Part shown: positions 3,643-59,020 of the stretch, piece after piece
Layout of the letters: each line of letters starts with the position of its first letter
How positions within the stretch are numbered: the stretch's first letter is position 1
From: Candidatus Moraniibacteriota bacterium
GTDB taxonomy: Bacteria > Patescibacteriota > Minisyncoccia > Moranbacterales > GCA-2747515
DNA: 64,000 nucleotides
Direction of reading: 5' to 3'
NCBI GenBank assembly: GCA_046116545.1
Contig: CP175956.1
Coordinates: forward strand, 1,025,734-1,089,733
The notes under the pieces: model-generated
The model's database searches: none
Told to the model about the DNA's origin: nothing
The model's input: only the letters and a program-made list of their open reading frames with translations
Made by a program: the position numbers and the translations under genes

Positions 3643-3651
3643 AAACTCTAT

Positions 3652-4710
3652 CTATTTATCATCCAAATCTTCTTCATCAACAGCATATATAATTATGCCC
3701 TCGTTCAAACCACTACTAACCTCAACGTCACCATCATCACCTTCAACTCCAGTGACAATATATTGTTTGTTATACTGTTCATCTGTAGTTTTTATATACA
3801 CATATTCACCATCATCATCACTACGCACAAATCGCAATGGTACCGTCAAAACATTGTTTTTTTGATTTACAACAACATCCACATCAACACTCATTCCTGA
3901 TAAAATATTTTTATCTATATTTTCAGGTAGTGCAAAAGTTGTATTATAATATGTCACATCCTGTACTCTCACAGCCTCTGGATCAATTCTCAATATATCC
4001 ACATCAAACTGTTCATCATTATATGCATCAAATATTGCAAATGCTTTTTGATCTTTATTCATCTTTGCAGCATCCGTCTCAGACATCAATATTTCAATCT
4101 CCATATCATTCTCATCGATTACACGCATCACAATACCTTGAGCAACTTCCCCAACACGTACATTTTTTTGTGTTACAATCCCATCGATAGGAGATACAAC
4201 TTCTGTATTTTTAAAATGTGACTGCGCTCCATACAACCGTGTACGCGCTTGTTCCACATCTTTTCTGATACGTTCTTTTTCTTCTGGCTTATAATCATCC
4301 CAATGTCTGCGTGCAAGTTGTTCAGCTGCTTGAGCTTTTTCTACATCAATACGAGCTGATTGAATCTCTGCAATAATAGAATTACGATCAATAACAATAA
4401 GTACTTGGCCCTCCTCCACAGTATCACCAACATCCACACTAACCGATTTTACAAGTGCAGGCGAAACAAAAGATAAATTTGCATAATTCACCGGTGTAAC
4501 CTTACCACTAGCACTCACAGTTTCCATAACATCATCTATATTAACAACATATGAATCGATATCCGAATCATTGTTATTGCTAGCAAATCGTTGCCACACA
4601 AGCCATACAACAAAAAGCACAACTACTACAATACTAACTATTTTTATAATTTTTTTCATATACTCCGCAATTGATAAAAACTTTACTTCATACATTATAT
4701 CATACCACAT
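3652..4710 (-). CDS. HlyD-family periplasmic adaptor (membrane fusion protein) of the tripartite efflux system
   Basis: N-terminal TM anchor, a biotin-lipoyl-like segment (VSGKVTPVNYANLSFVSPALVKSVSVDVGDTVEEGQVL) and a coiled-coil region. Its start overlaps the ATPase gene by 9 nt. Confidence 0.8.
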   Translation of the reverse strand: MWYDIMYEVKFLSIAEYMKKIIKIVSIVVVVLFVVWLVWQRFASNNNDSDIDSYVVNIDDVMETVSASGKVTPVNYANLSFVSPALVKSVSVDVGDTVEEGQVLIVIDRNSIIAEIQSARIDVEKAQAAEQLARRHWDDYKPEEKERIRKDVEQARTRLYGAQSHFKNTEVVSPIDGIVTQKNVRVGEVAQGIVMRVIDENDMEIEILMSETDAAKMNKDQKAFAIFDAYNDEQFDVDILRIDPEAVRVQDVTYYNTTFALPENIDKNILSGMSVDVDVVVNQKNNVLTVPLRFVRSDDDGEYVYIKTTDEQYNKQYIVTGVEGDDGDVEVSSGLNEGIIIYAVDEEDLDDK

Positions 4711-4799
4711 CCATCATGAAAAAATAAAGTCATTTTGCATATTTAAAAAAGACCCTCACTAATGCAAAAGTCTTTTAAAAGTTTATTGTTCAATTTTGT

Positions 4800-6509: not shown

Positions 6510-6575
6510 ATTTTTATTTTTATTTTTGTCTTACAGATTTTATTATATCACACATGTCTTTTCCTACAAAAGATA

Positions 6576-7262
6576 TTATTGTGATGACTGCAATCTTCCA
6601 TCTTTCAGCCAAACAGCCCTATCAACATATTTTTTATCATCTGGCTCATGTGTCACCATTATAATTGTCTGACCGTATTTATCTACTAATTCACGCATAA
6701 TACCCAAAACAACCGCCGCAGCCTCAGAATCCAAATTTGCCGTTGGTTCATCTGCAAATAGAATATCTGGCTTATTTACAATTGCACGTGCAATTGACAC
6801 ACGTTGTTGTTCACCTCCTGATAATTCTGATGGGAGATTATTTTCACGACCATGTAATCCTACTCTTTTAATAATTTCAAGCACTTCACTATTATATTGA
6901 GACTTTTTCTTTCCCAATGCCATCATGGGTAGTGCAACATTTTCATATAAATTTAACTCTGGAATCAAAGCGTAATCTTGGAACACATACCCAAGCATCT
7001 TTAGCCGAAACTCTGCGCGTTCTTTCTCTGATAATTTAGCAACATCTATACCGTCAATTTCAATATAACCTGAAGTTGGTCTATCAAGTAATGCAATTTG
7101 ATGCAAAAATGTTGACTTTCCAGAACCACTACGACCCATCAGTGCTACAAATTCACTTTTTTTTAATTGTATATCAATACCTTTAAGAGCATATACTGGA
7201 CTTGGTGAATCAGCTTTATATGTTTTAACAAGTTGTTTTGTTTGTAGAATAATTTTTTGCAT
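6576..7262 (-). CDS. ABC transporter ATP-binding protein (MacB/LolD-type), second system
   Basis: Walker A GRSGSGKST, signature LSGGEQQRVSIARAI and Walker B ILFADEPTANLD are present. Confidence 0.9.
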   Translation of the reverse strand: MQKIILQTKQLVKTYKADSPSPVYALKGIDIQLKKSEFVALMGRSGSGKSTFLHQIALLDRPTSGYIEIDGIDVAKLSEKERAEFRLKMLGYVFQDYALIPELNLYENVALPMMALGKKKSQYNSEVLEIIKRVGLHGRENNLPSELSGGEQQRVSIARAIVNKPDILFADEPTANLDSEAAAVVLGIMRELVDKYGQTIIMVTHEPDDKKYVDRAVWLKDGRLQSSQ

Positions 7263-7271
7263 AATTTTTTA

Positions 7272-8492
7272 TTATCGCATCAATGTAAGAATTTTTTTAC
7301 GAACCTCTTTTACTGCTGGAATAAATGAGCCTATAAGACCTGCCACAATAAAAAGCATAATACTCATACGCAATGCTTCTCTTTTAATTACTGGCACCAT
7401 ATCACCCATAGGAAAATCAATGGGATGTGCTCTGAAAAATCCAATTACACCAAAATTCATTAATAAAAATCCAAATATTACACCAAGTATAGTATAAAAC
7501 ATCCCTCTAATAACATAAGAATACATTACTGCTTTTTCTGGAATGCCTATCGCTTTTAAAATACCAATTTGCTTTCTTCTATTTACAATATCTACAAAAA
7601 TGATGATAAATATTACAAGACCTGCAACAAGCGAACCAATAATCCGCAATATCGAACCAATCATATCAAAAGACTTGTTAATTGTGGCACCCATTGATAA
7701 TTTATCGTTATAATCTGATATCTCATAATCTCCCAAGTTTATTTTTGAAAAATCAGCCACCGCTTCTTGTGATAAATGCTTATCAGTAAGCCGCACAATA
7801 ATTTCACTCGATTCATTTGTCGTGCCAAGGACTGAATTTAAATCATCTTGCAAAACAATCATCTTTGAATCAGTGTCAAAATTCTTTGTCTTATAAATTC
7901 CTACAATTTCATATTCTCTACTAATATCATTATTATATTCTGCTGTGATGACGTCACCTGTTCGTACACCCTCTAGATCCTCTGGAAATACTGAACTTCC
8001 ATACCCACCAGCCATATCTGCACCAAGTAAAGCTTTTCCATAATCATTATTTTCCAAGAATCTACCTTCGATAATATGTGATTTTAAATCAATAGACTCA
8101 TTTTCAACTTCTGGATTTACACCAATAACACCTGCCTCAAACTGTGCCACGTCCCTACCATCATTATATTTATCATTTTTAAGTGTAGCTCCTGTACGCA
8201 AATGTGCTGTCACACTACTCACATAATAAAAATCCTGTATTTCATCTATAAAATCATTTGTATTTTTGATATATTTATCTCCTATCTGTGGCTCAATAAT
8301 CACTTCACCATATTGATAATTAATTTTACCATTATCCATCGTAGCAGTGATCCCTTTAAATACAGCATCTACAAAAAGTAAATTCAAAAAAACAACAAGC
8401 ATGATAAGAACCGTCAACATAAGAGATCCTTTATCCCCCCGTAAAATTGTTTTAATAGCCAAGAATAATGACAATTTTGCATTACTAAACAT
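7272..8492 (-). CDS. ABC transporter permease, FtsX/MacB-like, second system
   Basis: 406-aa ORF with an N-terminal TM helix, a periplasmic domain, and a C-terminal FtsX domain (RRKQIGILKAIGIPEKAVMYSYVIRG followed by TM helices). Confidence 0.8.
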   Translation of the reverse strand: MFSNAKLSLFLAIKTILRGDKGSLMLTVLIMLVVFLNLLFVDAVFKGITATMDNGKINYQYGEVIIEPQIGDKYIKNTNDFIDEIQDFYYVSSVTAHLRTGATLKNDKYNDGRDVAQFEAGVIGVNPEVENESIDLKSHIIEGRFLENNDYGKALLGADMAGGYGSSVFPEDLEGVRTGDVITAEYNNDISREYEIVGIYKTKNFDTDSKMIVLQDDLNSVLGTTNESSEIIVRLTDKHLSQEAVADFSKINLGDYEISDYNDKLSMGATINKSFDMIGSILRIIGSLVAGLVIFIIIFVDIVNRRKQIGILKAIGIPEKAVMYSYVIRGMFYTILGVIFGFLLMNFGVIGFFRAHPIDFPMGDMVPVIKREALRMSIMLFIVAGLIGSFIPAVKEVRKKILTLMR

Positions 8493-8515
8493 ACTGCTCG
8501 AATTTGTAAATGATA

Positions 8516-9511
8516 TTATTCCACATTTTCTAATTTTACCACCTTATCACCAACGCTCAATCCTGAAATTATTTCAATATTTTCATCTCCAATAATACCA
8601 GTTTCAAAATATTTTTTTACAAATGGATCTTTCTTATTATTTTCTGAATTCATCACATATACAAAATATCCTTCATCATCTTTTTGAGTAATATCTCTCA
8701 ATACGATTGTTACGTTATTTTTATGTTCAATAACAATATCCACTTCAGCATTCATTCCATCTAAAATAGCAATATTTTCTTTATTATCAATATCTATAAT
8801 CGTCTTATAATATGTGCTATTTTGATCAACTGTACTACCTGTATCCATCGATGCAAACGTACCTGCTATAGCGTTATTTGGATATGCATCAAAAACAATA
8901 TATGCTTTATCACCTTTAGAAACCTTTGCAACATCAACTTCTGGTAATAACCCTTCTACCCGTAATGATTCTAAATCAATGATTTTCATAATAATACCTG
9001 ACGCGACCTCTCCAACTCGTGCATTTTGTTCAATTATCACACCATCAATTGGCGATACAATCGTTGTTTTAGCTGCCTGTGCATATATCTCATTCAATGT
9101 TTGTCGTGATTGCTCTGTAGCTTTTTTAATGCTCTCGCGTTCTTCTGGCTTCAACACATCCCATTTACGTCTAGCTTGTTGCTCTGCCAACTCTGCACGT
9201 TCTACTGCAAGTTTTGCATTATTAATTTGTGCATAAATTGATTTTTTGTCCAAACGAAAAAGCTCTTGACCTTCTTCTACATAATCATTCACTGATACAT
9301 CTACAGAATTGATCAATGTCGGTAACTCTGTAGAAATATCCGCATATACTTCTGGTGTCATTTGAGCATTAATATCAATTGTCTTTTCTACATCACCACT
9401 AGCAATAATTACTTCAGTATAAGATTGTACAATATTACGTGACCGAAAAAAGAAAATACCGCCCACAACGAGAATCAAAACAACAATAACAGTAATAATT
9501 TTATTTTTCAT
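8516..9511 (-). CDS. HlyD-family periplasmic adaptor, second system
   Basis: N-terminal TM anchor, a lipoyl-like hairpin and a coiled-coil region. It is homologous to 3652..4710 (shared motifs such as ARRKWD..KPEE and VSPIDG). Confidence 0.8.
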   Translation of the reverse strand: MKNKIITVIVVLILVVGGIFFFRSRNIVQSYTEVIIASGDVEKTIDINAQMTPEVYADISTELPTLINSVDVSVNDYVEEGQELFRLDKKSIYAQINNAKLAVERAELAEQQARRKWDVLKPEERESIKKATEQSRQTLNEIYAQAAKTTIVSPIDGVIIEQNARVGEVASGIIMKIIDLESLRVEGLLPEVDVAKVSKGDKAYIVFDAYPNNAIAGTFASMDTGSTVDQNSTYYKTIIDIDNKENIAILDGMNAEVDIVIEHKNNVTIVLRDITQKDDEGYFVYVMNSENNKKDPFVKKYFETGIIGDENIEIISGLSVGDKVVKLENVE

Positions 9512-23493: not shown

Positions 23494-24090
23494 TTAATTA
23501 TATGGATCTTCGAGAATCTCTTTTGCTTTTTTCTTATCCCATTTATACCAAATTAAAGCACTTCCAATAAATAATGTAGACATTATCCAACCAGCCCATG
23601 ATACATACTCAACAATTCTTTCATACATATATCCAAAAGAATACCCTATTATAACCAGAAAACCACTCCAAAAGATACCCCCTATAAGTGTATACATAAA
23701 AAATTTCCAAAATGGCATCTTCACTATACCCGCAGCAATAAATGTCACCCAACACAATCCAGTTGTAGATTTAACTGCTATAATTATTTTTCCACCATGT
23801 CCATTAAATGCTTTTTCCATTTTCAATACTGATGATTCCTTTATTCCTACTCTATATCCAATTTTATTTACAAATCTCATCCCCCATTTACGACCAATTC
23901 CATACAATAAAACATCTCCGATTATTCCAGCTACTAGAGAAATACAAAAAACTACATATACATTAAATACTCCCATTGAAGCCATAAATGCTGCAACTAT
24001 TGCAACTATTGGACCTATAATCATCATCAATGGAATCATTATCGCGTATCCGTATTCATTCAAAAATTGTATTACTACCTGTCCATCCAT
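23494..24090 (-). CDS. DedA/SNARE-associated family membrane protein
   Basis: IIAVKSTTGLCWVTFIAAGIVKMPFWKFFMYTLIGGIFWS, a DedA-like signature. Confidence 0.75.
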   Translation of the reverse strand: MDGQVVIQFLNEYGYAIMIPLMMIIGPIVAIVAAFMASMGVFNVYVVFCISLVAGIIGDVLLYGIGRKWGMRFVNKIGYRVGIKESSVLKMEKAFNGHGGKIIIAVKSTTGLCWVTFIAAGIVKMPFWKFFMYTLIGGIFWSGFLVIIGYSFGYMYERIVEYVSWAGWIMSTLFIGSALIWYKWDKKKAKEILEDPYN

Positions 24091-24129
24091 AATGTTTATT
24101 ATATATCATTTTTACTATATAATACAGTT

Positions 24130-25806
24130 ATGGAAAACTTCAAAAACATATCACACTCCAGTGATAGAAAAATAGAAAATAATAAAATACATCAAAATAG
24201 TGAAAAAGGCTTTACCAGACGAGAATTCAATATTGGACTAGCTGCCGCTGCAACTGTTACTGCAATTGGAGGTACTAAATTTTTAACATCCCGAAGAACT
24301 GGAGAATTAGAAAATGATATTAGCCCTGAAGACCAACTTAAACTTGATTCAAAACTAGCAGAAATACAAAAACGATTAACACCCACAGACCAACAAACAG
24401 AAATTTTAAAAACAGAAGATGAAATTGTTGGTAAAACATTTAGACAACAAATTCAAGAAAATGGCTATATTTCTATTGACGCACAAACAAAAAAAGCAAT
24501 TTATGACCATTGGCACAAAAGATATTCACCTGATGGTAGTGATTATAGTGGTGGACTGATAGAGGGCCTAAACCGAATGGAACCATGGATTGATGAAATA
24601 AAAGAAATATTTAATGATTATGATATTCCCTCAGAATATATTTTTTTAGCTATTCCAGAATCTCATTTTGATATTGATGCTGTCTCACATACTGGGGCAA
24701 TTGGACCTTACCAAATAACAGCACAAACTGCAGACCTGTTCGATATGCAACATACTACTGCATATGATGAGCGACGCGATCCAATCTATAGTGCCCAATT
24801 ATGTGCAAAACATTTGAAACACAGCTATGAACGATTTGGACATGATTGGTCACTTGCTCTCATGGACTATAATGGTGGATTTACAAATAATTATCTAGAA
24901 TACGTAAAAGAAACCGAAAAAGTAACTCCATTAGAAATTCAAGATGAAATACACACTTTACAAAATGGCGAGACATTATCTTCAGTAGCTATAAAATATA
25001 ATACATCAATACGACTTTTACGAAGAGCTAATAATATTTCAACTGAAGAGGTTCTTAAACTTGGAATTGGTAAAAAATTAAGAATCCCACAAGAAAGAAA
25101 TATAACACTTGAAGGATTTAATGATTGGTTGGAAGATCGCATAAATGATGAGATCTCAGATGATAAACCTTATATTGTACAACCTGGAGATACGTTAACT
25201 AAAATTCAAACAAAAACCGGGATTGCAATAAAGGATATTATGTCGACCAATGGATTGACTGACACAATTGTTAAAATTGGACAAAAACTAAAACTACCTC
25301 CCACAGAAAGAACTGCAGACATTGTTAATAAAAAACTTAATGCTATATCAAAATTTAGTGAAAATATAAATTATCCAGAAAAATTTTTTGCCATATCTGA
25401 CATAATAAAATCTGAAGGTCTTGATAATATATTACATGACACGCAAAGAATATATAAAATGATTGATATCCCAAAAGTAAATATTACAAAATTTACACAC
25501 ACAGTTACACGTGGTGACACAGTGAGAGGTCTTGCTATAAAACTCAAAAGAAAATATCCACAAACCCAATTAACAATTGCCACTATAATTGGAATGTTTA
25601 AAAATACACATAATTTAGATACAAAATATACTATACGCAAGGGACAGAAATTAAGCATTTCATTTCCCATGGAAAGACCTGCTACATTATTAGATATTTC
25701 AAAAAAACATAATTTAGCTATTAATTTTCTACAAAAACTAAATCCTGCAATATTAATAAATAAAGCTGAGTTGCCCAAAGATATTAAAGTTAGAATACCT
25801 AAGTAA
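24130..25806 (+). CDS. Membrane-anchored lytic transglycosylase (SLT domain) with three LysM repeats
   Basis: SLT motif LAIPESHFDIDAVSHTGAIGPYQI. LysM-like units: HTLQNGETLSSVAIKY, YIVQPGDTLTKIQTKTG and HTVTRGDTVRGLAIKL. The start was moved to the second Met to avoid a 24-nt head-on overlap with the DedA gene. Confidence 0.75.
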   Translation: MENFKNISHSSDRKIENNKIHQNSEKGFTRREFNIGLAAAATVTAIGGTKFLTSRRTGELENDISPEDQLKLDSKLAEIQKRLTPTDQQTEILKTEDEIVGKTFRQQIQENGYISIDAQTKKAIYDHWHKRYSPDGSDYSGGLIEGLNRMEPWIDEIKEIFNDYDIPSEYIFLAIPESHFDIDAVSHTGAIGPYQITAQTADLFDMQHTTAYDERRDPIYSAQLCAKHLKHSYERFGHDWSLALMDYNGGFTNNYLEYVKETEKVTPLEIQDEIHTLQNGETLSSVAIKYNTSIRLLRRANNISTEEVLKLGIGKKLRIPQERNITLEGFNDWLEDRINDEISDDKPYIVQPGDTLTKIQTKTGIAIKDIMSTNGLTDTIVKIGQKLKLPPTERTADIVNKKLNAISKFSENINYPEKFFAISDIIKSEGLDNILHDTQRIYKMIDIPKVNITKFTHTVTRGDTVRGLAIKLKRKYPQTQLTIATIIGMFKNTHNLDTKYTIRKGQKLSISFPMERPATLLDISKKHNLAINFLQKLNPAILINKAELPKDIKVRIPK

Positions 25807-25871: not shown

Positions 25872-28202
25872 TTAGACTATAATATCCTTTCTAACGATTC
25901 CATCTTTAACACGTATTTCACCACGCTTTTCGAATTGTTTACCACTTATAGGCTGTCCTTTTGCCTTAATATTATATAATCCATTATCTGCAAGAAGATA
26001 ATACCTACCAATTGAATCTGTTACAGCAAATCCCTCTTTATAACTAGTTTCTTTTTTATAGAGATTAACAACAGCAAATGGAATTGGCTTTCCATCACTT
26101 GTTTCCACTACACCATATTTCTTTTTCTTAAAGAATTTTTGAAATATAAATAACACAACGTAGATACCAAGTACAACAAAATTAAATATTGACGGGTAAA
26201 AATAAGTAATTATTATAGTTGCACTAAATCCTATAACATAAATTGCTGTAAAAAAGTACTTTTTAAATATTGACCAGTTAGAATTATATTGTTTCTCCTT
26301 CTTAACAGCATATTCCTTCCAATCAATATTATCAGATTTCATAGCAATATTTGAAAGCATAACGTGATCTTCATTTATTTCAACTTCTCCTCCATCATAA
26401 ATATTTCCATACAATTCGTCATTAGAATCATTAGTCATTAATTTATAATCTTTTTTAGCTACGTTAATAATGTAATTTCCTGGACTTACTAAAAATCCAA
26501 ATCTACCATCTTTATCAGAATATGTTGTTGCCATCTCCTTGCCCATTGTATCCAAAAGTACAATCTTTACAGCTGGGATAGGAACTCTTGTTTCACTATC
26601 AAATACAACTCCCCAATTTCTTTCTTCCTTACGCCTTCCTATTATTCCAAATAATTCCAAAAATTGTAAAAATACAGTACTACTAAATGCTCCTGGCATA
26701 GCTGCAAATAACGGTATCGAAGATCCAGCTAGTGCAGCCGTTGTCCCAGCTACAGCTCCTACAGTAGCAGCAGTTTGATATGTTCTCTTAGTTTCCTCTG
26801 GGGCTATAGTTTCTCTAGCTTTTTCTTTTTTTACACTCTCACCAACATACGAATCATCCGCTTCATCTAACTCTTCTTCCAATTTATCTTCTAGTTCTTC
26901 TTCATCTACATCAGTAGAACCACCTGAAATATCACAAGCTCCTATATAATCACCATGATCCAAATGCTCTTGAAGTGATAATTCTGCAATTGAAATAGTA
27001 TCACCCTTGTGACAAATAATAATCTTTTTACCTTCAACTTGTGTACATGCACCAACAGTAGCTCCTTGATCTAAATAAGTCTGCAATTCTGATTGCAAAA
27101 CAATTATTGTAATTCCATCTGAACAGATTTCAACTGTGGGATCTGGAATACTTACAGTATTTGTAGTTGCACTTTTTGAACTTGAATACTCACTTTCATA
27201 ATCCTCACCATCAAGAGAATATTTAACCTTAAATGTATATTCTGTTCCCGAATTAAGTCCAGTTAATCCCAAAACCACCTCGCCACTACCATCTGTTTTT
27301 TTACTAAAATCAACTGTAAATGTATTTCCGGTTAATTCATTTTTTATATGAACAATAAAATCCAAATCTTCATCTTGTCTGTCACTAACTTCAACAATAA
27401 TATCTAGTGAACTAGTTGTGATATTATCAATGCTTTTAATTTCAGGATCAGACAAATCTTCTTCATCTTTAATAGTCGTTATAGTTTTTGAATTCGAATA
27501 CTCACTAAAATTCAAACTTCCATTTCTAGTATATTTAACCTTAAATGTATATTCTGTATCAGGATCCAAACTATCCATATTAAGTATCACATTACTTCCA
27601 GTAATATTTTTTGTCATTTGTACAGTATATGAACCTCCGCCGCTAACTTCAACAATAAAATCCATAAAACTTCCTATAAAACTAGGATCAATTGCTACAT
27701 TCAAGTCTACTGTATTAATAGTAACATCATCAATAGAACTAAGAACTGGTGCGTTAATTAATGTTGTAGCACTGTCCATATCAGAATCACCACTAAAAAC
27801 TCCACCCGGCCTAGAATATCTCACATTAAACTCATATTCCGTTCCCGGATCTAGCCCTGTCACATTTAAAATAGTTTGTGCATTAGAGTCAGTTCCCTGT
27901 GTATAATTAGCACTTGAGACATCTCCTGAAACAACATTTGTAATCGTCACAACATAATCAAGTATTTCATTTGCATAACCACTGTATGTATTTTCAACTT
28001 CAGTAAGTAAATCTAGGGAATTTGTAGTTACATTATCTATACTAATAATAGATGGAGTTGCTGGAACAACAACCAAACTATTATCTACAGTCACACCTAA
28101 ATTTTGACCAGCGTTCTGAGTAGCTGCCTCAACATTAGAAAATACACCTACAATAACAAAAAATAAAATTGTTATAATGACTTTTTCAAAAATTTTTTTC
28201 AT
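25872..28202 (-). CDS. Large multi-domain membrane protein. Domain order: signal peptide, 3 Fn3-like repeats, a duplicated Cys/His motif, an acidic linker, a TM helix, a CarboxypepD_reg-like domain, a TM hairpin, and a second CarboxypepD_reg-like domain
   Basis: Three ~95-aa repeats (SIDNVTTNSLDLL…, SIDDVTINTVDLNV…, SIDNITTSSLDIIV…). Motifs ICSDGITIIVLQSELQTYLDQGATVGAC and ICHKGDTISIAELSLQEHLDHGDYIGAC. Regulatory-domain-like segments RVPIPAVKIVLLDTMGKEMATTYSDKDGRFGF and GKPIPFAVVNLYKKETSYKEGFAVTDSIGRYYL. Confidence 0.6.
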   Translation of the reverse strand: MKKIFEKVIITILFFVIVGVFSNVEAATQNAGQNLGVTVDNSLVVVPATPSIISIDNVTTNSLDLLTEVENTYSGYANEILDYVVTITNVVSGDVSSANYTQGTDSNAQTILNVTGLDPGTEYEFNVRYSRPGGVFSGDSDMDSATTLINAPVLSSIDDVTINTVDLNVAIDPSFIGSFMDFIVEVSGGGSYTVQMTKNITGSNVILNMDSLDPDTEYTFKVKYTRNGSLNFSEYSNSKTITTIKDEEDLSDPEIKSIDNITTSSLDIIVEVSDRQDEDLDFIVHIKNELTGNTFTVDFSKKTDGSGEVVLGLTGLNSGTEYTFKVKYSLDGEDYESEYSSSKSATTNTVSIPDPTVEICSDGITIIVLQSELQTYLDQGATVGACTQVEGKKIIICHKGDTISIAELSLQEHLDHGDYIGACDISGGSTDVDEEELEDKLEEELDEADDSYVGESVKKEKARETIAPEETKRTYQTAATVGAVAGTTAALAGSSIPLFAAMPGAFSSTVFLQFLELFGIIGRRKEERNWGVVFDSETRVPIPAVKIVLLDTMGKEMATTYSDKDGRFGFLVSPGNYIINVAKKDYKLMTNDSNDELYGNIYDGGEVEINEDHVMLSNIAMKSDNIDWKEYAVKKEKQYNSNWSIFKKYFFTAIYVIGFSATIIITYFYPSIFNFVVLGIYVVLFIFQKFFKKKKYGVVETSDGKPIPFAVVNLYKKETSYKEGFAVTDSIGRYYLLADNGLYNIKAKGQPISGKQFEKRGEIRVKDGIVRKDIIV

Positions 28203-28515: not shown

Positions 28516-31230
28516 CTATTGATAATACCCACTAGCATCAGAAGTGGCTGTGTATGTCACAGATCCAGTATAAACTCCTGAAGGTTGTGATGGTGATACA
28601 TCTACTTTGTAACATACATCAGTTGTTGATGAAGTTGAATTATATGCTGTGTATGCTGCTATTGCTTGAGCTGTTTGTGGTACACCTGCATATTCTGCAT
28701 CATCATTTGTTGTTCCTTCTTCACACAGATCTCCTGAGGTTGTCCATATGTTATTGAAGGTGTTATGAGTTGTATCATTTTGTGGAAATTGTATTACTGA
28801 GAAACCTAAACCTTTTGTTGTTGGAGCGTTCCAAGATTCTGTTACTTTTGTTGTTTGATCAAATTGTGTTAGGTCTGGTATTTCATCTGTATTATTTGAA
28901 TGTACTAGGGTTGTATTTGAAGCTCCATTATCATTTATCATTGATAAATAATAACCTTGGGTATCATTTGTTGTTACTATACAAGTTGATTCTCCTACTG
29001 CTGGAGTTCCTGCTATTACTATTCCTGGGTTTGCTACTGTTCCTAGTATTACATCATAATCTCCTGTTGATCCATCTTTATCATAACAATCCATTGATAG
29101 GGTTGCATTTACTTCTACATTTAGGTTTAGGTCATCTATTCCTGATATTGTTCCATCTCCGTTTACAATATAAGTTGTTGCATGGTTTGTTGTGAATGTA
29201 CATATTCCGTTTGTTACTGTACATGTTGTATGGGTATTCCATGTTACTTCTCCTTCTAGTTGTGAAAGGACTTCTAGTTCCATATCATTGTAAGCTTCGC
29301 TTACAGTTATTTCCATTGTTATATTTTGTGAAAAAGATAGGTTTTCATTTGGTATACCTAGTCTTACTGCTCCTATTGCATTTGGATGATCTCCTTTTTC
29401 TTCTGATAGTGTATTCTCTGTTATGAAGTTTTCAAAGTTAAAGTTTTGATTCAAGCTTTCGGTTATTACTGTATTATTTGGGAATATCGCATTTGTTGTA
29501 TTTGATTGGAAGGTTACTTGTACTTGGGTTGTTGTTTGGGTTGCGTTGTCTATTGTTCCGTTATCTACTGAGATGTAGCCATTTGTTTCTAAATCACTCA
29601 TATCTGTTGTACTTGGATCTGGAATTGTTTGATTTGTTAATGGATTTGTTGTGAAACTTTGTTCTTCTCCATATACGATTCCTTTTTCATTTGTTGCTTT
29701 TGCTCTTATGTAATATGTTGTGTTTGGCGTTAGGCTTGTTAGGTCACAAGAGTATGTTCCTAATGCTCCTACACCTGCGGTGCAGTCATCAGTGTAAGTT
29801 TCACTTACTGTTCCCCATTGGATTTCTCTTGTTGGATTCTCTGTTCCTATATCTGTTATATTTGCATTTCCTATTGCCGATGTAGTTCCTATATTATTTG
29901 TTGTGTTTGTTATTGTTTGAGCTTTGTTTGTTAGGAAGTGGATGTGGATTGCACCTCTATTTATTCCTCCTGCGTCATCATCAGGAACACCAACTGCAAT
30001 ATCTTGAATACCATCATCATTAACATCACCTATATATGCAATATTTCTTCCATAACGATCATCATTTACAAGTGTTGGACCATTTATTGTATTAGAATTA
30101 ACTTCAACCGTTGATTTTACCGAACCATCCATATTCATAAAATGAATATGGATTGTGCCACGATCTGTACCAGCTGCATCATCCAAATAAGCTCCTACTG
30201 CAATATCTTCTGCACCATCATTATTAAGATCTCCTATACCCGCAACTGACACACCATAAAGATCACTGTCTGCAAGATTTGGACCATTTGTTGTTGTACT
30301 ATCAATTTTTATAGTTGAATCAATAGAGCCATCTGTATTCATAAAATGAATATAGATTGCACCACGATCCGTTCCATTTGTATCATCACGATAAGCTCCT
30401 ACTGCAATATCTTGTACACCATCATTATTAAGGTCTCCTATACCAGTAACTGCTATACCATAACGATCATCATTTACAAGTGTTGGACCATTTGTTGTTG
30501 TGTCATTTATTTCTACGGTTGAATCAATAGAGCCATCTGTATTCATAAAGTGAATATATATTGTTCCTCTATTTTCACCACCCGCATCATCACGATAAGC
30601 ACCTGATGCAATATCTTGCACTCCATCACCATTAATGTCTCCTATACCCGCAACTGTTACACCATAATAATCATAATCTACAAGATTTGGACCATTTGTT
30701 GTTGTGTCATCTATTTCTACAGTAGAATCAATAGAGCCATCTGTATTCATAAAGTGAATATGAACAGCTCCAGAATCTACATTCCCACCTGAATCATCAC
30801 GATAAGCTCCTACTGCAATATCTTGTACACCATCATTATTAAGGTCTCCTATACCGGTAACTGATATACCATAACGATCACCATTTACAAGTGTTGGACC
30901 ATTTGTTGTTGCATCATTTATTTCTACAGTAGAATCAATAGAGCCATCTGCATTCATAAAATGAATATATATCGCACCACGTTCCGCTCCGTTTGCATCA
31001 TCAAAATACGCACCCACTGCAATATCTTGTACACCATCATTATTAAGGTCTCCTATACCCGCAACTGTTACACCATAATAATCAGAATCTAATAAAACTG
31101 GACCATTTGTAGTCAGATCATTAATCTCCACAGTAGAATCAATAGATCCATCTCCTACAGCAAGTGTTGTTTGTGTATAAAAAAGTGTAGCAATAAATGC
31201 TACCGAAAGTATTATAATATTATTTTTCAT
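28516..31230 (-). CDS. Secreted surface protein, paralog 2. Domain order: signal peptide, 7 FG-GAP repeats (integrin-alpha-like beta-propeller), an Fn3-like domain, and the conserved C-terminal domain
   Basis: 904 aa. A ~68-aa unit YG.SV.GIGDLNNDGVQDIAVGAY.DD.GG…G.IHIHFMN.DGS occurs 7 times. An Fn3-like segment reads YSCDLTSLTPNTTYYIRAKATNEKG. The C-terminal ~285 aa are nearly identical to paralogs 1 and 3. Confidence 0.75.
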   Translation of the reverse strand: MKNNIIILSVAFIATLFYTQTTLAVGDGSIDSTVEINDLTTNGPVLLDSDYYGVTVAGIGDLNNDGVQDIAVGAYFDDANGAERGAIYIHFMNADGSIDSTVEINDATTNGPTLVNGDRYGISVTGIGDLNNDGVQDIAVGAYRDDSGGNVDSGAVHIHFMNTDGSIDSTVEIDDTTTNGPNLVDYDYYGVTVAGIGDINGDGVQDIASGAYRDDAGGENRGTIYIHFMNTDGSIDSTVEINDTTTNGPTLVNDDRYGIAVTGIGDLNNDGVQDIAVGAYRDDTNGTDRGAIYIHFMNTDGSIDSTIKIDSTTTNGPNLADSDLYGVSVAGIGDLNNDGAEDIAVGAYLDDAAGTDRGTIHIHFMNMDGSVKSTVEVNSNTINGPTLVNDDRYGRNIAYIGDVNDDGIQDIAVGVPDDDAGGINRGAIHIHFLTNKAQTITNTTNNIGTTSAIGNANITDIGTENPTREIQWGTVSETYTDDCTAGVGALGTYSCDLTSLTPNTTYYIRAKATNEKGIVYGEEQSFTTNPLTNQTIPDPSTTDMSDLETNGYISVDNGTIDNATQTTTQVQVTFQSNTTNAIFPNNTVITESLNQNFNFENFITENTLSEEKGDHPNAIGAVRLGIPNENLSFSQNITMEITVSEAYNDMELEVLSQLEGEVTWNTHTTCTVTNGICTFTTNHATTYIVNGDGTISGIDDLNLNVEVNATLSMDCYDKDGSTGDYDVILGTVANPGIVIAGTPAVGESTCIVTTNDTQGYYLSMINDNGASNTTLVHSNNTDEIPDLTQFDQTTKVTESWNAPTTKGLGFSVIQFPQNDTTHNTFNNIWTTSGDLCEEGTTNDDAEYAGVPQTAQAIAAYTAYNSTSSTTDVCYKVDVSPSQPSGVYTGSVTYTATSDASGYYQ

Positions 31231-31444: not shown

Positions 31445-32041
31445 CTAAAATTTTTCTGACTCTAACACTATTAATAACAATTTCTTTTTTGCTCTTCTTA
31501 ATAACGTCCCAACACTACTAGTTGGTTTATTTAAAATTTCACTTATTTCAGTATATGATTTGTCTTCAAAATATCTTAATGTTATGACTTGTGCATAATT
31601 TTCTGGTAATTGAGCTACAGCATCTTCTAATTCACCCCTTAACTCAATTTGAAACCATTCATCTAAAGTCGTACTGGTTTTATCTGATATCTCTATATTA
31701 TCCTTTACTGAATCAACCTCTTCTATTGATATAGTTTTCCTTTTATTACTTCTATTAAACCAATTCATTGTTTCATTATGAGCAATTCTATAAATCCATG
31801 ATGAAAACTTTTTTTCACAATCAAATGAATCGATATGCTTTAATGTTTTTATAAAAACATTTTGAACTAAATCCTTCGATTCATCTGAATTATTCACAAA
31901 ACGCATTACGTAATAAAATAATTTTTTCTCATACCTTTTTATTATCACATCAAAACATGCAGTATTTCCATTTTGAACCATTCTCACTATTTCATTATCA
32001 TCAACACTTTCATCACAACCAAAAATTTCTTTTTTATTCAT
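31445..32041 (-). CDS. RNA polymerase ECF-type sigma-70 factor
   Basis: Region 2 (DLVQNVFIKTLKHIDSFD…FSSWIYRIAHNETMNW) and region 4 (SYTEISEILNKPTSSVGTLLRRAKKKL). Confidence 0.8.
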   Translation of the reverse strand: MNKKEIFGCDESVDDNEIVRMVQNGNTACFDVIIKRYEKKLFYYVMRFVNNSDESKDLVQNVFIKTLKHIDSFDCEKKFSSWIYRIAHNETMNWFNRSNKRKTISIEEVDSVKDNIEISDKTSTTLDEWFQIELRGELEDAVAQLPENYAQVITLRYFEDKSYTEISEILNKPTSSVGTLLRRAKKKLLLIVLESEKF

Positions 32042-37581: not shown

Positions 37582-38862
37582 ATGTTAGCAAAATCCAATA
37601 CAATTTTATTTATTTTTTCAATAACATTACTATTACCAAGTATTGTCTTTGCCAATGAACCCAAAACAACCAGTGAAAATACTGTTGAATTAACAATAAA
37701 TAATTCTGTAAAAGAATATCTAACACTTTCTGATATAGCTAATTTTTCAACCAAAACACCTTTTTTATTTTATGATGATAATTATAAAACTGAAATCCAA
37801 AAACCTATACGCTGTCTAAATACTTATGAACCGTGTCTTTTAACTTCATCACTCAGACAATCACACACAACAAACAATGATACAATCACCAACATAAACA
37901 ATTCTAATATAGATATATTTGTAGATGATATTGCCAGAAAAGTTTCTACAGACCCTGTTAACGCAAAACTGAGGTTTGATGATGAAACTGGAAAACTTGA
38001 AGAAGTTTCACCACACACAGACGGAGTAAAATTGGATATTGAACAAGCAAAAATTCAAATCATAAATACTGTATCCAGCCTCAATAATAACAATGCACTC
38101 GAATTACCTATAACAATTAATCCAGCACAAATAACTAGCATAAGCGCCAAAGAGCTTGGTATTCAAAAATTAATTGGCAAAGGAGAATCTGATTTTAAAG
38201 GTTCCACAAAAAGTAGAATTCATAATATTACAACCGCTGCAAAACGATTTGATGGTTTAGTAATAGCTCCTAATGAAGAATTTTCTTTTGTTTCCATACT
38301 TGGCCCAGTTGATGGAGAACATGGCTACAAAGAAGAGTTAGTTATCCTAGATAATGAAACAAAACCAGAATACGGAGGTGGAATTTGTCAGGTTTCAACA
38401 ACTGTTTTTCGAGGTGCTATCTTAAGTGGCATGAAAATAACACAAAGACGTAATCATTCTTATCCAGTTCATTATTACATGCCTATAGGCTTTGATGCTA
38501 CTGTATATGTACCTGCTCCAGATTTTAGATTTATAAATAATACACCTGGACACATTTTGCTAAACATGGAAATGGAAGGAACTAAATTAGTTTTTAAATA
38601 CTACGGAACAGATGATGGTAGAGAGGTTGAGATGAAAGGGCCTTTCATAACTGACCGGCAACCAAATGGGGCCATGAAGACTTACTTTACACAAAAAGTT
38701 ACTGATAAGTCTGGAAATGATATCATCGATGATGTATTTAAAAGTAATTATAAATCTCCAGATGATTACCCACATCCAGGAGATGTTGCTAAGTTCACTG
38801 AGAAACCAGAAGACTGGTCAAAAAGTCAGTGGAAAGACTACAAAATTGCTAATGGCTTATAA
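37582..38862 (+). CDS. Secreted VanW-like domain protein
   Basis: Signal peptide. The GGGICQVSTTVFRGAILSGMKITQRRNHS block resembles the conserved core of VanW-family proteins. Confidence 0.6.
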   Translation: MLAKSNTILFIFSITLLLPSIVFANEPKTTSENTVELTINNSVKEYLTLSDIANFSTKTPFLFYDDNYKTEIQKPIRCLNTYEPCLLTSSLRQSHTTNNDTITNINNSNIDIFVDDIARKVSTDPVNAKLRFDDETGKLEEVSPHTDGVKLDIEQAKIQIINTVSSLNNNNALELPITINPAQITSISAKELGIQKLIGKGESDFKGSTKSRIHNITTAAKRFDGLVIAPNEEFSFVSILGPVDGEHGYKEELVILDNETKPEYGGGICQVSTTVFRGAILSGMKITQRRNHSYPVHYYMPIGFDATVYVPAPDFRFINNTPGHILLNMEMEGTKLVFKYYGTDDGREVEMKGPFITDRQPNGAMKTYFTQKVTDKSGNDIIDDVFKSNYKSPDDYPHPGDVAKFTEKPEDWSKSQWKDYKIANGL

Positions 38863-51148: not shown

Positions 51149-52195
51149 TTATTTCTCAATATTTATACTTACTTTTTCATTATCCTCTTCGGCACTTACT
51201 CTTTGATCCTTCTTGGCATCTACTATTTTTGTTGATTCTACATTCACAAACTTAACACTTTGATTACTTCTCGCATTGTTTCTTTTTTTACTGTTTTGTT
51301 TTTTAACGATATGTTTCTTATCTCTACTATTTATAATCTTCAATAAAACAAGTATACAAACAATCACAATTATCGCAACTAGTGGGAAAAAATAACCCAT
51401 AGTAAAATCTATTTTCATCCTAGTTGCCCCCTCACCATCTACAAAAACTGTGGTTGCCTTATACAACCCAAATAATGACGGAACATCTTCAACTATAATA
51501 AACTCAAATATTTTTCCCGGAAATACAAAATGTTTTTCATACTCATATAAATTTTCTTTTTTTGTAAAAATATTTCTTACTACAATTTCACCATATGGTA
51601 CGTAATGTATATTTCCTGTATTTTCAAATTCAGCCGCATACTCAACCGTACCAAATGATAATAATGGAATATCAAATTTATTTACACGACCACTCGCATG
51701 TGTATCCCCCTTCACATTCACTAGTACATGCACTCCAACTTGACCATTAACCTGCACTGTATTATCTGAATCATCCTCGATTCTGAATATAGCAGCACCT
51801 CTATGACTTCCTATAACAGCATCATTGGGTGTATTCACAGTAAATACTATCTCTCGCTTCTCTCCATCAGTTAATTTGATATACTCTTCATCTACACTAA
51901 GCCAATTACTAAGACCTGTTTGTTCATCTTTATCATCAATGAGAACTAAATCATTATTTTCTCCCAAAACATAATCTTTTGCATCTAAAATAATTTCCTG
52001 TTCTTTTCCTGAAATATTTTTTACATTAATTACAAACTGTTGTGATTCACCTGCATTTACATCAAAAACAATAGCCGTTTGATCAACTTCAACGCCTAAG
52101 TTACCTGCAAATGAAATCTGCGGCAAAACCACCAGAAACCCACTCATTACCAAATACTGAACTACTTTATAAAATTTCATATTTTTTACTATCAA
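51149..52195 (-). CDS. Cell-surface protein with an N-terminal signal, beta-rich ectodomain, C-terminal TM anchor and Lys-rich tail (DUF916/DUF3324-like architecture)
   Basis: 348 aa. It has a signal peptide and a C-terminal hydrophobic helix FFPLVAIIVIVCILVLL followed by a K/R/N-rich tail. The family assignment rests on architecture only. Confidence 0.45.
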   Translation of the reverse strand: MIVKNMKFYKVVQYLVMSGFLVVLPQISFAGNLGVEVDQTAIVFDVNAGESQQFVINVKNISGKEQEIILDAKDYVLGENNDLVLIDDKDEQTGLSNWLSVDEEYIKLTDGEKREIVFTVNTPNDAVIGSHRGAAIFRIEDDSDNTVQVNGQVGVHVLVNVKGDTHASGRVNKFDIPLLSFGTVEYAAEFENTGNIHYVPYGEIVVRNIFTKKENLYEYEKHFVFPGKIFEFIIVEDVPSLFGLYKATTVFVDGEGATRMKIDFTMGYFFPLVAIIVIVCILVLLKIINSRDKKHIVKKQNSKKRNNARSNQSVKFVNVESTKIVDAKKDQRVSAEEDNEKVSINIEK

Positions 52196-52304: not shown

Positions 52305-55013
52305 CTACTGATAAAACCCACTAGCATCAGAAGTAGCAGTATAAGTTACTGAACCTGTATATACTCCTGAAGGTTGTGATGGTGATACATCAACTTTGTA
52401 ACATACATCAGTTGTTGTTGAAGTTGAATTATATGCTGTGTATGCTGCTATTGCTTGAGCTGTTTGTGGTACACCTGCATATTCTGCATCATCATTTGTT
52501 GTTCCTTCTTCACACAGATCTCCTGAGGTTGTCCATATGTTATTGAAGGTGTTATGAGTTGTATCATTTTGTGGAAATTGTATTACTGAGAAACCTAAAC
52601 CTTTTGTTGTTGGAGCGTTCCAAGATTCTGTTACTTTTGTTGTTTGATCAAATTGTGTTAGGTCTGGTATTTCATCTGTATTATTTGAATGTACTAGGGT
52701 TGTATTTGAAGCTCCATTATCATTTATCATTGATAAATAATAACCTTGGGTATCATTTGTTGTTACTATACAAGTTGATTCTCCTACTGCTGGAGTTCCT
52801 GCTATTACTATTCCTGGGTTTGCTACTGTTCCTAGTATTACATCATAATCTCCTGTTGATCTATCTTTATCATAACAATCCATTGATAGAGTTGCATTTA
52901 CTTCTACATTTAGGTTTAGGTCATCTATTCCTGATATTGTTCCATCTCCGTTTACAATATAAGTTGTTGCATGGTTTGTTGTGAATGTACATATTCCGTT
53001 TGTTACTGTACATGTTGTATGGGTATTCCATGTAGTAGATCCTTCTAGTTGTGAGAGAACTTCTAGTTCCATATCATTGTAAGCTTCGCTTACATTCATT
53101 TCTATTGTTATATCATTTGAGAAACTTAGGTTTTCATTTGGTATACCTAGTCTTACTGCTCCTATAGCATTTGGGTGTTCTACTTTTTCACTTGTTAAAG
53201 TATTTTGTGTTATGAAGTTTTGGAAGTTGAAGAGTCCTGCACTTGCTTCAGTTATTACAGTACTTGTTGGAAATATTGCATTTGTTGTTGGTGATTGGAA
53301 AGTTATTTGTTCATTTGTTGTTGTTTGTGTTGTATTGTCTAAAGTTCCATTATCTACTGTTATGTAACCATTTGTTGTTAGATCATCCATATCTATTGTA
53401 TCTGGATCTATAACTATTTGGCTTGTTAATGCATTTGTTGTAAAACTTTGTTCTTGACCATATACTATTCCTTTTTCATTTGTTGCTTTTGCTCTTATGT
53501 AATATGTTGTGTCTGGAGTTAAATCAGTCATATCACAGGAGTAACTTCCTGTGCCTCCAGTTCCTGCGGTGCAGTCATCAGTGTAAGTTTTACTTACTGT
53601 TCCCCATTCTATTTCTCTTGTAGGATTTTGAGTTCCTATATCTGTTATTTCTGCGTTTCCTATTGCTGTTGTTGTTCCTATTGTTGAAGTTGTATCTGTT
53701 TGAGTTTGAGCTTTGTTTGTTAAGAAATGGATGTGGATTGCTCCTCTGTCTATTCCTCCTGCGTCATCATAACGCGCAGTAACAATAAGATCTTGAACGC
53801 CATCATTATTAAGATCACCTATATTTGTGATGGACGCACTATAAAGATCTGCATCAGAAAGCACTGGACCATTTGTAGTATTATCATTAATTTCTACTGT
53901 TGATTTAACTGAACCATCCGTATTCATAAAGTGAATATGTATCGTACCACGATTTGCACCACCAGCATCATCAAGATATGCACCTACTGCAATATCTTGT
54001 ACACCGTCACCATCGAGGTCCCCCATATTTACAATAGACTCACCATAATAATCCGAGTCTGCTAAATCAGGTCCATTTACTGTTAAATCATTAATCTCTA
54101 CTGTTGATTTAACCGAACCATCTGTATTCATAAAGTGAATATGTATCGTACCACGACTTGTACCATTCAAACTATCATAAACTGCACCTACGGCAATATC
54201 ATTTACACCATCATTATTAAGATCACCTATATTTGCAACAGATTCTCCATATTGATCACCATCGAGAGTAGGTCCATTTATAGTTAAATGATTAATTTCT
54301 ATAGTAGAATCTATAGAACCATCTGTATTCATGAAATGTATGTGTACCGTACCATTATTAATTCCACCAGTATCATCACCAGTTGCTCCAACCATAATAT
54401 CCTCAACACTATCATTATTAAGATCGCCCAAATTTTCAATAGATATACCATAAAGATCACCATCAGACAATGTTGGACCATTTATAGTGCTATCATTAAT
54501 CTTTACAGTTGAATCAATTGAACCATCTGTATTCATAAAGTGAATATATACTGCACCCTGATCTGTACCTCCTGTGTCATCACGATATGATCCAACCGTA
54601 ATATCTTGTACACCATCATTATTCAAATCATTCAAATTTGCAATAGCATATCCATATCTATCACCATCTGAAAGCACTGGTCCATTTATTGTTAAATGAT
54701 TTATTTCTACAGTGGATTTAACAGAACCATCTATATTCATGAAATGAATATGTACTGCACCGCGATCTGTACCTCCTGCATCATCATAAAATGCCCCAAT
54801 AGCAATATCATCCACACCATCACCATCAAGATCACCAATGTTTTCAACAGCTGATCCATATGAATCCGAATCATTAAGCACTGGTCCATTTGTTGTTAAA
54901 TCATTTATTTCGATAGTTGAGTCTATTGAGCCGTCTCCTGCTGCAAAAGTTGATTGTGAACAAAAAAGTGTAGCAATAAATGCTATTGAAATTATAATTA
55001 GATTATTTTTCAT
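52305..55013 (-). CDS. Secreted surface protein, paralog 3. Domain order: signal peptide, 7 FG-GAP-like repeats, an Fn3-like domain, and the conserved C-terminal domain
   Basis: 902 aa. It has the same architecture as 28516..31230. The last ~370 aa are nearly identical to paralog 2, and the last ~285 aa are nearly identical to paralog 1. Confidence 0.75.
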   Translation of the reverse strand: MKNNLIIISIAFIATLFCSQSTFAAGDGSIDSTIEINDLTTNGPVLNDSDSYGSAVENIGDLDGDGVDDIAIGAFYDDAGGTDRGAVHIHFMNIDGSVKSTVEINHLTINGPVLSDGDRYGYAIANLNDLNNDGVQDITVGSYRDDTGGTDQGAVYIHFMNTDGSIDSTVKINDSTINGPTLSDGDLYGISIENLGDLNNDSVEDIMVGATGDDTGGINNGTVHIHFMNTDGSIDSTIEINHLTINGPTLDGDQYGESVANIGDLNNDGVNDIAVGAVYDSLNGTSRGTIHIHFMNTDGSVKSTVEINDLTVNGPDLADSDYYGESIVNMGDLDGDGVQDIAVGAYLDDAGGANRGTIHIHFMNTDGSVKSTVEINDNTTNGPVLSDADLYSASITNIGDLNNDGVQDLIVTARYDDAGGIDRGAIHIHFLTNKAQTQTDTTSTIGTTTAIGNAEITDIGTQNPTREIEWGTVSKTYTDDCTAGTGGTGSYSCDMTDLTPDTTYYIRAKATNEKGIVYGQEQSFTTNALTSQIVIDPDTIDMDDLTTNGYITVDNGTLDNTTQTTTNEQITFQSPTTNAIFPTSTVITEASAGLFNFQNFITQNTLTSEKVEHPNAIGAVRLGIPNENLSFSNDITIEMNVSEAYNDMELEVLSQLEGSTTWNTHTTCTVTNGICTFTTNHATTYIVNGDGTISGIDDLNLNVEVNATLSMDCYDKDRSTGDYDVILGTVANPGIVIAGTPAVGESTCIVTTNDTQGYYLSMINDNGASNTTLVHSNNTDEIPDLTQFDQTTKVTESWNAPTTKGLGFSVIQFPQNDTTHNTFNNIWTTSGDLCEEGTTNDDAEYAGVPQTAQAIAAYTAYNSTSTTTDVCYKVDVSPSQPSGVYTGSVTYTATSDASGFYQ

Positions 55014-55784: not shown

Positions 55785-59020
<3,236 letters not shown>

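Follow-up and report, generated by a model that had tools for sequence, protein, structure and literature searches.

A candidate pilin-type C-terminal domain beneath modular adhesin heads in a Moraniibacteriota genome

Introduction

To our knowledge, bacteria of the candidate phyla radiation (CPR) are thought to live attached to host cells, and the molecules by which they attach are almost unknown. The present analysis concerns a C-terminal domain (CTD) shared by three secreted proteins, here called P1, P2 and P3, which are encoded within 64,000 nucleotides of Candidatus Moraniibacteriota DNA (assembly GCA_046116545.1, contig CP175956.1, positions 1,025,734 to 1,089,733; this whole stretch is referred to as the window). 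It appears fairly probable that the CTD is a pilin or anchor domain which works by β-strand complementation and carries modular adhesin heads. Most likely, it plugs these variable heads into a surface fibre or a membrane-held complex and does not bind the cell wall directly.

The closest described system is that of the Pam pili, for which filaments of PamA and PamB from the Saccharimonadia bacterium Ca. Mycosynbacter amalyticus have been solved by cryo-electron microscopy (cryo-EM) in a 2026 preprint (bioRxiv 10.64898/2026.03.03.709456). These pili assemble by donor-strand exchange and their subunits have paired cysteines; PamT is a single-domain tip pilin, and PamC and PamD are chaperones with C-terminal transmembrane (TM) helices. 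The NCBIfam models NF058581 (CPR_Pam_pilin_C) and NF058579 (CPR_pilus_PamT) derive from the same work, which does not mention WxL, DUF916, adhesins or Parcubacteria and states that host recognition by Pam fibres is unknown (bioRxiv 10.64898/2026.03.03.709456).

A second relevant system is formed by the WxL clusters of Firmicutes. These combine small WxL proteins, consisting of the domain only, large WxL proteins, in which host-binding heads are followed by a WxL domain that is always C-terminal, and the WxL-interacting protein (WxLIP), composed of DUF916, DUF3324 and a TM helix (PMC1534035, PMC9772566, PMC10599100). AlphaFold2 (AF2) predicts that a hairpin strand of DUF916 fills a gap in the WxL β-sandwich (PMC10599100). 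The WxL domain has been read as a wall anchor and DUF916 as a peptidoglycan-binding domain (PMC9772566, PMC10599100).

The shared C-terminal module of P1, P2 and P3

The window has a GC content of 33% and its closest database relatives are named Candidatus Moraniibacteriota. An earlier sequence-only reading had proposed a conserved module of about 285 amino acids (aa) at 28516..29373. This region is coding on the minus strand only, where it forms the last 285 codons and the stop codon of the open reading frame (ORF) 28516..31230, and a tblastn search with P1 finds only two further copies of its module in the window, those of P2 and P3. The proteins and their domains are as follows.

28516..31230, minus strand: P1, secreted protein of 904 aa (ORF translation)
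52305..55013, minus strand: P2, 902-aa paralog of P1-like architecture, 78% identical to P1 overall
4800..6509, minus strand: P3, 569-aa paralog with a different N-terminal head and the common 369-aa module
29173..29625, minus strand: middle β-sandwich (P1 residues 536-686), common to P1, P2 and P3 and separable from the CTD
28519..29133, minus strand: CTD of P1 (residues ~700-904, ~205 aa), its start mapped from domain-only homologs
~52308..52922, minus strand: CTD of P2
~4803..5417, minus strand: CTD of P3

P1 begins with a signal peptide followed by 6-7 FG-GAP repeats (residues ~25-437; Pfam E 3e-30), an FN3-like stretch (~440-535) with weak fn3 and Pur_ac_phosph_N matches, the middle β-sandwich (536-686), a linker and the CTD. 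P2 likewise carries 6-7 FG-GAP repeats and a weak FN3-like stretch in Pfam. P3 is homologous to P1 solely over P1 residues 536-904, and both tblastn and alignment place the start of homology at residue 536, giving a shared module of 369 aa; the N-terminal ~200 residues of P3 have no family match in Pfam. Within the module, the middle sandwich and the CTD are separable units, since homologs carry either one alone: the sandwich lacks a CTD in P0038, whereas P0020 and P0022 show the reverse.

Much of what the sequence-only reading said of this region holds. The shared C-terminal region is real and lies on the minus strand in all three proteins, and its composition is rich in T, N, D and G, as proposed (T 15.6%, D 9.2%, G 8.7%, S 8.7% and N 8.3% over the quoted 218 aa). 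The four conserved cysteines (C715, C750, C836 and C873 in the CTD region of P1) vary little or not at all among close family members. Each protein begins with a hydrophobic, signal-peptide-like segment, in agreement with the Sec signal peptides suggested for all three, and this is its sole hydrophobic segment. Regular-expression and hydropathy scans of P1, P2 and P3 found, as had been reported, no LPXTG, no W-x-L and no further TM segment, and Pfam gave no SLH or WxL match in the CTD. The limits of the region fared less well. The interval begins at residue 620, inside the upstream sandwich, and takes in 67 of its residues, whereas the domain itself measures ~205 aa and the shared module 369 aa. 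The quoted stretch is not 285 aa long either, as its start (YIVNGDG) is P1 residue 687, which leaves 218 aa (28519..29172). Its quoted ending, GFYQ, is correct for P2 and P3, but P1 ends in GYYQ.

Kinship with the Pam pilin domain

The CTD alone has nothing above threshold in Pfam or NCBIfam. Among its relatives, however sub-threshold, CPR_Pam_pilin_C (curated cutoff 55 bits) is the recurrent and usually the sole match. It is found in 18 of the 45 close members and 34 of the 64 distant ones, with scores of 13-36 bits and best E values of 1e-8 to 7e-9, and nearly all of these matches span the whole 148-position model. CPR_pilus_PamT (curated cutoff 240 bits) is matched, also sub-threshold, by 8 of the 64 distant members (best E 1.7e-12); weak DUF4402 matches occur in Pfam for 8/64 relatives. 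When the distant alignment was used for a third word-indexed homolog search, no protein named as Pam or WxL was gained.

On these matches, the CTD appears to be a distant relative of the Pam pilin domain, representing a Moraniibacteriota branch that is fused behind modular adhesin heads and is associated with a DUF916-type partner. If the domain is indeed of Pam type, the Pam system extends to the Parcubacteria side of the radiation, and the family provides a large and easily searchable class of modular adhesins; their heads, among them β-propellers and lectin-like LamG domains, become candidates for recognising the host. Through the DUF916 partner, the pili of CPR bacteria would also be tied to the WxL surface-protein clusters, long enigmatic, that occur in lactobacilli, enterococci and Listeria, and both would share a testable mechanism, that of strand complementation by a membrane-anchored Ig-domain protein.

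Domain anatomy and predicted structure

The AF2 model of the 369-aa module has a mean predicted local distance difference test (pLDDT) score of 84, which falls below 50 in the inter-domain linker (module residues 163-171). The middle β-sandwich is modelled with about 10 strands at pLDDT 80-93. Modelled alone, the CTD is all-β, again with about 10 strands (pLDDT 87.9, predicted TM-score 0.82), and is predicted to be a discrete, Ig-like β-sandwich of ~205 aa that resembles the CTD of Pam pilins. At the junction of linker and CTD lies an amphipathic segment:

29092..29130, minus strand: candidate donor strand or N-terminal extension LNLNVEVNATLSM (P1 residues 701-713)

The hydrophobic positions of LNLNVEVNATLSM strictly alternate, a pattern kept in both the close alignment and the 64-member distant alignment. 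In monomer models its first half has low AF2 confidence (~64-76 in the CTD model), and in short homologs the strand comes directly after the signal peptide. It is a candidate for a donor strand that would act on a neighbouring subunit.

When the CTD model was compared with the Protein Data Bank (PDB) using Foldseek, the best E value was 0.018 and TM-scores were 0.3-0.5. Pilins of the donor-strand type, or pilin domains from tip adhesins, make up about half of the top 50 neighbours, with CS20, CfaE, FimA/FimI/FimG, CsuE, PapG and CupB6 among them; the TasA fibre is listed as well. The same search with the two-domain model gave noisy output. We take the predicted structure as no more than supportive of a kinship with pilins. 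The terminal hairpin motif (VDVP..Q.SG.Y.G.VT.TA) is not peculiar to this family, as β-sandwiches unrelated to it, for example the GH123 N-domain, contain it too. The terminal motif GVYTGSVTYTATSDAS resembles at first sight the C-terminal motif of WxL domains; this resemblance was downgraded, as the hairpin is also present in unrelated Ig-like sandwiches and PF13731 was never matched.

Family size and architectures

A word-indexed search retrieved 42 homologs, the long ones with differing heads (LamG, FG-GAP, FISUMP and DUF5122). In about 20 homologs, with lengths of 230-270 aa, nothing but a signal peptide precedes the CTD. An exhaustive hidden Markov model (HMM) search over 1.84 billion representatives yielded 468 clusters at E<=1e-3, of which 120 remain at E<=1e-10, and architectures were counted on the best 142 new representatives among these 468 clusters. 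Short proteins (<=280 aa, signal peptide and domain only) account for 76 of the 142 listed and long ones, of up to 3773 aa, for the other 66; in all 66 long proteins the domain ends <=6 residues from the C-terminus. In the domain-only members the mature protein, of ~200-260 aa, is the domain itself, and an N-terminal signal-like segment is present in 57/65 short relatives.

A DUF916-type partner gene

Directly downstream of P2, on the same strand and after a gap of 109 nucleotides (nt) in which no terminator-like hairpin was found, lies a gene for a membrane-anchored protein:

51149..52195, minus strand: partner gene, 348 aa, probable ATG start at 52180

Its product starts with a signal peptide, has β-rich ectodomains resembling DUF916/WxLIP_PGBD and ends in a basic tail, with a C-terminal TM helix located near residue 260. 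Its best Pfam match is PF06030 (DUF916, now named 'WxL-interacting protein PGBD'), at E 0.002 and 18.5 bits, compared with a gathering threshold of 27.3. In other Moraniibacteriota genomes, the genes that flank short family members encode homologs of this protein (blastp 2e-19 to 7e-13; HMM 2e-119). A profile built from four partner sequences retrieves 84 CPR proteins, ~30 of which carry a precomputed PF06030 annotation and one of which is named by NCBI as a DUF916 protein. PF06030 is the top Pfam match in all eight partner-family members scanned, above the gathering threshold in three of them.

The pairing recurs. In an HMM scan of related loci, every short domain-only gene for which downstream sequence is available is followed by a same-strand DUF916-type gene (L001 and L005 twice each, L002, L007, L008 twice, L010 and L012), and the same pairing is seen at L019 and at P2 of the window. 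A metagenomic operon (L023:8001-15586) encodes six ~210-aa domain-only paralogs, one DUF916-type TM-anchored protein of 304 aa and an 832-aa polytopic membrane protein with a weak match to the LIC_10190 family; genes for a glycosyltransferase and a radical-SAM protein adjoin it. The arrangement has the appearance of an entire operon for a fibre, which may include an enzyme that modifies pilins. The partner of P2 is a candidate membrane-anchored chaperone or anchor.

Comparison with described systems

The family resembles the Pam system in its CPR lineage, its Sec signal peptides, its paired cysteines and the existence of single-domain, PamT-like members. In both, a C-terminal β domain of ~150-200 aa is preceded by a conserved strand and a β-sandwich, and a neighbouring gene encodes a secreted, β-rich protein with a C-terminal TM helix. 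Moreover, members of the family recurrently match CPR_Pam_pilin_C and PamT over the full length of the models. However, all matches of the window family stay under the curated cutoffs, the domain has ~205 aa compared with the 148 positions of the Pam model, and the lineage is Moraniibacteriota, on the Parcubacteria side, rather than Saccharimonadia or Microgenomatia. Here the CTD stands behind large adhesin heads (the FG-GAP propeller, LamG and others) and the partner is recognisably DUF916, an arrangement and a link that are both absent from the preprint. No ATP-synthase neighbourhood and no PamR-like terminator were identified in the window. Finally, Pam filaments have been seen by cryo-EM, whereas no filament is known for the present family.

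With the WxL clusters the family shares the three-part logic of small, large and DUF916-TM proteins. The domain is at the extreme C-terminus of the large proteins and forms the whole mature protein in the small ones, and the partner family matches PF06030 (DUF916/WxLIP_PGBD). However, the family lacks both W-x-L motifs and matches to the WxL model. The W.L motif is present in none of P1, P2 and P3, the CTD has no match to PF13731 at E<=10, and none of the 64 relatives has one at E<=0.1. In contrast to the WxL clusters of Firmicutes, the family belongs to CPR bacteria, DUF3324 was not detected in the partner, and the large proteins are mostly dispersed in Moraniibacteriota genomes and not clustered with the partner gene.

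The tip adhesins of chaperone-usher pili (FimH, PapG, CfaE and CsuE) provide a third comparison. They too join an N-terminal receptor-binding head to a C-terminal pilin domain, and such pilin domains are the commonest Foldseek PDB neighbours of the AF2 model of the CTD. In short members of the family, the strand of alternating hydrophobic residues ahead of the domain is comparable to an N-terminal extension. However, the structural similarity is weak (E 0.02-0.3, TM-scores 0.3-0.5), the domain has ~205 aa as opposed to ~150 aa, and the putative chaperone is membrane-anchored and of DUF916 type. The CTD has no Fimbrial (PF00419) or SCPU match in Pfam, and there is no usher-like gene among the scanned neighbours in the window, nor would one be expected in CPR cells, which have no outer membrane. 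Classical Gram-positive anchors (LPXTG, SLH and a C-terminal TM helix) are absent from P1-P3 by regular expression, hydropathy and Pfam.

Near-identity of the three copies and gene conversion

P1, P2 and P3 share ~99% amino-acid identity over the 218 aa, which is far above chance, with just four differences among the three copies in about 540 nt. Base-by-base comparison from the 3' end and sliding identity delimit a tract of 443 nt that is 100% identical in all three:

28630..29072, minus strand: gene-conversion tract in P1
52419..52861, minus strand: gene-conversion tract in P2
4914..5356, minus strand: gene-conversion tract in P3

On the 5' side of it, the coding sequences are only 70-88% identical among copies. 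Because synonymous sites are identical within the tract, recent gene conversion is indicated beyond purifying selection alone, and the near-identity of the three CTDs is in good part its product. The final 114 nt, beyond the tract, have 14 differences, 12 of which are synonymous, and therefore strong purifying selection also acts on the terminal strand and hairpin.

An assembly artefact is unlikely to lie behind the identical tract, as the flanks differ, the three contexts are distinct and related metagenome-assembled genomes (MAGs) break their contigs exactly in this domain. In the GTDB Moraniibacteriota MAGs (L006 and L009-L022), many domain matches start at contig base 1-4, and there are up to seven loci per MAG. 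Contig ends at the domain are expected if homogenised copies break short-read assemblies, and in genomes of this kind such assemblies seem to be interrupted systematically at the C-terminal repeat, which is a point of practical relevance. Two contigs of a 'Micavibrio sp.' MAG (L004 and L014; DYDB01000016.1 and DYDB01000004.1) with 37-41% GC also carry the Moraniibacteriota-type domain; the title or the binning of this MAG is probably wrong.

Proposed mechanism and alternative explanations

In the mechanism that we favour, proteins of the P1, P2 and P3 type would be exported by Sec, after which the CTD would be held and its sandwich completed by a β-strand supplied in trans, at first from a membrane-anchored protein of the DUF916/WxLIP type such as the neighbour of P2. 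The completing strand would then be provided by the conserved amphipathic strand ahead of the CTD in the next subunit. Short domain-only paralogs encoded elsewhere in such genomes would build the fibre or surface complex, onto which P1, P2 and P3 would mount their heads through the CTD. These are the FG-GAP β-propeller with FN3 in P1 and P2, and in P3 a head of no matched family. Such mounting would resemble that of two-domain tip adhesins (FimH, PapG) or of 'large WxL' proteins, and gene conversion may keep the three CTDs identical so that all fit one partner. The analysis itself shows where the domain begins and ends, how large its family is and which architectures it takes, the pairing with DUF916-type genes, the sub-threshold matches to Pam models and the gene-conversion tract; we infer, in this scheme, the strand complementation, the polymerisation, the tip-adhesin role and the reason for the homogenisation.

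Several observations weigh against a pilin-type domain with a dedicated DUF916-type partner. The CTD of the window itself matches CPR_Pam_pilin_C at 12.5 bits and E 0.12, over positions 15-146 of the 148 in the model, which is below the cutoff, and no relative reaches this cutoff, the best scoring 35.9 bits. The DUF916-type proteins match no NCBIfam Pam model, and the second domain of WxLIP, DUF3324 (PF11797), is missing from the partner as far as Pfam detects it. Foldseek returned no PDB match at E<1e-3 for the CTD, and generic Ig-like sandwiches (GH123 N-domain, CBM32) are also among its matches. Profile searches of PDB sequences with alignments A2, A4 and A5 gave chance-level matches only (topoisomerase II, the GH123 hairpin and Fab signal peptides). 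The 64-kb window contains no short domain-only gene, and neither P1 nor P3 has a gene of DUF916 type next to it, which also holds for most copies that are large or lie at contig ends. Furthermore, we know of no filament observed in the Moraniibacteriota lineage.

The sequence-only reading had taken the region for a candidate uncharacterised domain of no known family that may anchor the proteins to the CPR cell wall or S-layer, on the argument that a domain held constant beneath varying modules behaves as an anchor. A C-terminal module with variable heads is indeed what is found, but the identity of the copies is mostly that of a gene-conversion tract, which weakens the argument from constancy. 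The domain is present in many other genomes (the 468 clusters above), and no confident match to an enzymatic or adhesin-tip family, the outcome named there as telling against anchoring, was obtained. The absence of any known family does not stand, since relatives match CPR_Pam_pilin_C or PamT sub-threshold and the partner belongs to the DUF916/WxLIP family. Overall, the idea of an attachment module survives while its proposed target is unsupported: nothing points to direct binding of the wall or S-layer, and about half of the family is domain-only, in tandem cassettes with pilin and chaperone-like genes. Because domain-only proteins are arranged in such cassettes, with six paralogs in one operon, the domain behaves as a fibre subunit would and not as an anchor tag.

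A non-covalent envelope anchor in the strict sense, in which the CTD binds peptidoglycan, another wall polymer or the S-layer directly, short proteins compete or co-anchor, the DUF916 protein merely stabilises and nothing polymerises, is a rival that differs from a strand-complementing domain chiefly in its attachment target. The constant C-terminal position of the CTD beneath variable heads fits it, as does a three-part logic like that of the WxL clusters, in which WxL is read as a wall anchor (PMC9772566, PMC10599100). We nevertheless consider it unlikely, as W-x-L motifs and PF13731 matches are lacking in the domain and its 64 relatives, the sole recurring family match is a pilin domain solved within a filament, and cassettes in which as many as six domain-only paralogs stand in tandem beside a single chaperone-like gene resemble fibre subunits. 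The CTD could instead be a generic Ig-like stalk or spacer that attaches nothing, and its constancy would then only reflect that the copies were duplicated recently and converted; the 443 nt of perfect DNA identity and the occurrence of the terminal hairpin motif in unrelated β-sandwiches (GH123 N-domain) could be cited in favour of this. A spacer would not be expected to be restricted to the extreme C-terminus in 66/66 listed long proteins, to form the mature protein all by itself in roughly half of the members or to be tightly paired with one membrane-protein family, and the 12 synonymous changes among 14 in the last 114 nt point to selection; this explanation is accordingly held to be quite improbable. 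Least credible of all is a C-terminal export or sorting signal, comparable to the CTD of type IX secretion or to a type 1 signal, read by the MacB-type ABC exporters and HlyD-like adaptors around P3. P3 does lie between two sets of genes for an ABC ATPase, FtsX/MacB-like permeases and membrane-fusion proteins, but such neighbours are absent at P1, at P2 and at the short members in other genomes, all three proteins have Sec-type signal peptides, and a folded domain of 205 aa that can form a whole mature protein is not a sorting tag.

A broader extension of strand complementation by the CTD can be offered tentatively, as a possibility that we hold to be doubtful. The combination of a Pam-like pilin domain with a DUF916/WxLIP partner may be a bridge between the CPR Pam pili and the Firmicutes WxL clusters, both of which would then be one ancient, usher-less system of chaperone-assisted donor-strand exchange in bacteria without an outer membrane. 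The large proteins would then be interchangeable tip adhesins with which episymbiotic CPR cells take hold of their hosts, with gene conversion keeping their pilin domains compatible with one assembly partner. If so, WxL domains would be pilin-like, polymerising or strand-accepting domains and not primarily peptidoglycan binders.

Other genes of the window

P3 is flanked on both sides, on the minus strand, by an ABC exporter set of MacB/FtsX type that includes a HlyD/MacA-like membrane-fusion protein; P3 and the two sets together span 219..9511:

8516..9511, minus strand: adaptor, one side of P3
7272..8492, minus strand: permease, same set
6576..7262, minus strand: ATPase, same set
3652..4710, minus strand: adaptor, other side of P3
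2896..3642, minus strand: ATPase, same set as the preceding adaptor
1482..2729 and 219..1472, minus strand: permeases, same set

Such tripartite-style adaptors are curious where an outer membrane is presumed absent. A role of these systems as a dedicated exporter of P3 was considered and rejected, as the association is seen at no other locus.

The start of P2 lies ~430 nt downstream of a 5S ribosomal RNA (rRNA) gene on the same strand, past a terminator-like hairpin. The rRNA genes are:

55782..59018, minus strand: 23S rRNA, 3237 nt compared with a 2925-nt model, with about 300 nt of insertions
55443..55550, minus strand: 5S rRNA

No 16S gene adjoins these, as the genes from 59877 onwards encode proteins, and the 16S therefore appears to be unlinked.

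Downstream of P1, a gene at 25872..28202 (minus strand) encodes a further envelope protein, of 776 aa, which combines a signal peptide and three FN3 domains with an acidic linker, TM helices and a pair of carboxypeptidase-regulatory-like domains and shows no homology to the DUF916-type partner. The gene immediately upstream of P1, in the same orientation, encodes an extracytoplasmic function (ECF)-type sigma factor (31445..32041, minus strand; SigW/RpoE-like, E 1e-33), which may be a dedicated regulator of the P1 adhesin gene. Cell-wall-active proteins are also encoded near the adhesin genes, namely an SLT lytic transglycosylase with LysM repeats (24067..25806, plus strand) and a VanW-like protein with PG_binding_4 (37582..38862, plus strand). 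Their presence indicates a locally remodelled peptidoglycan wall.

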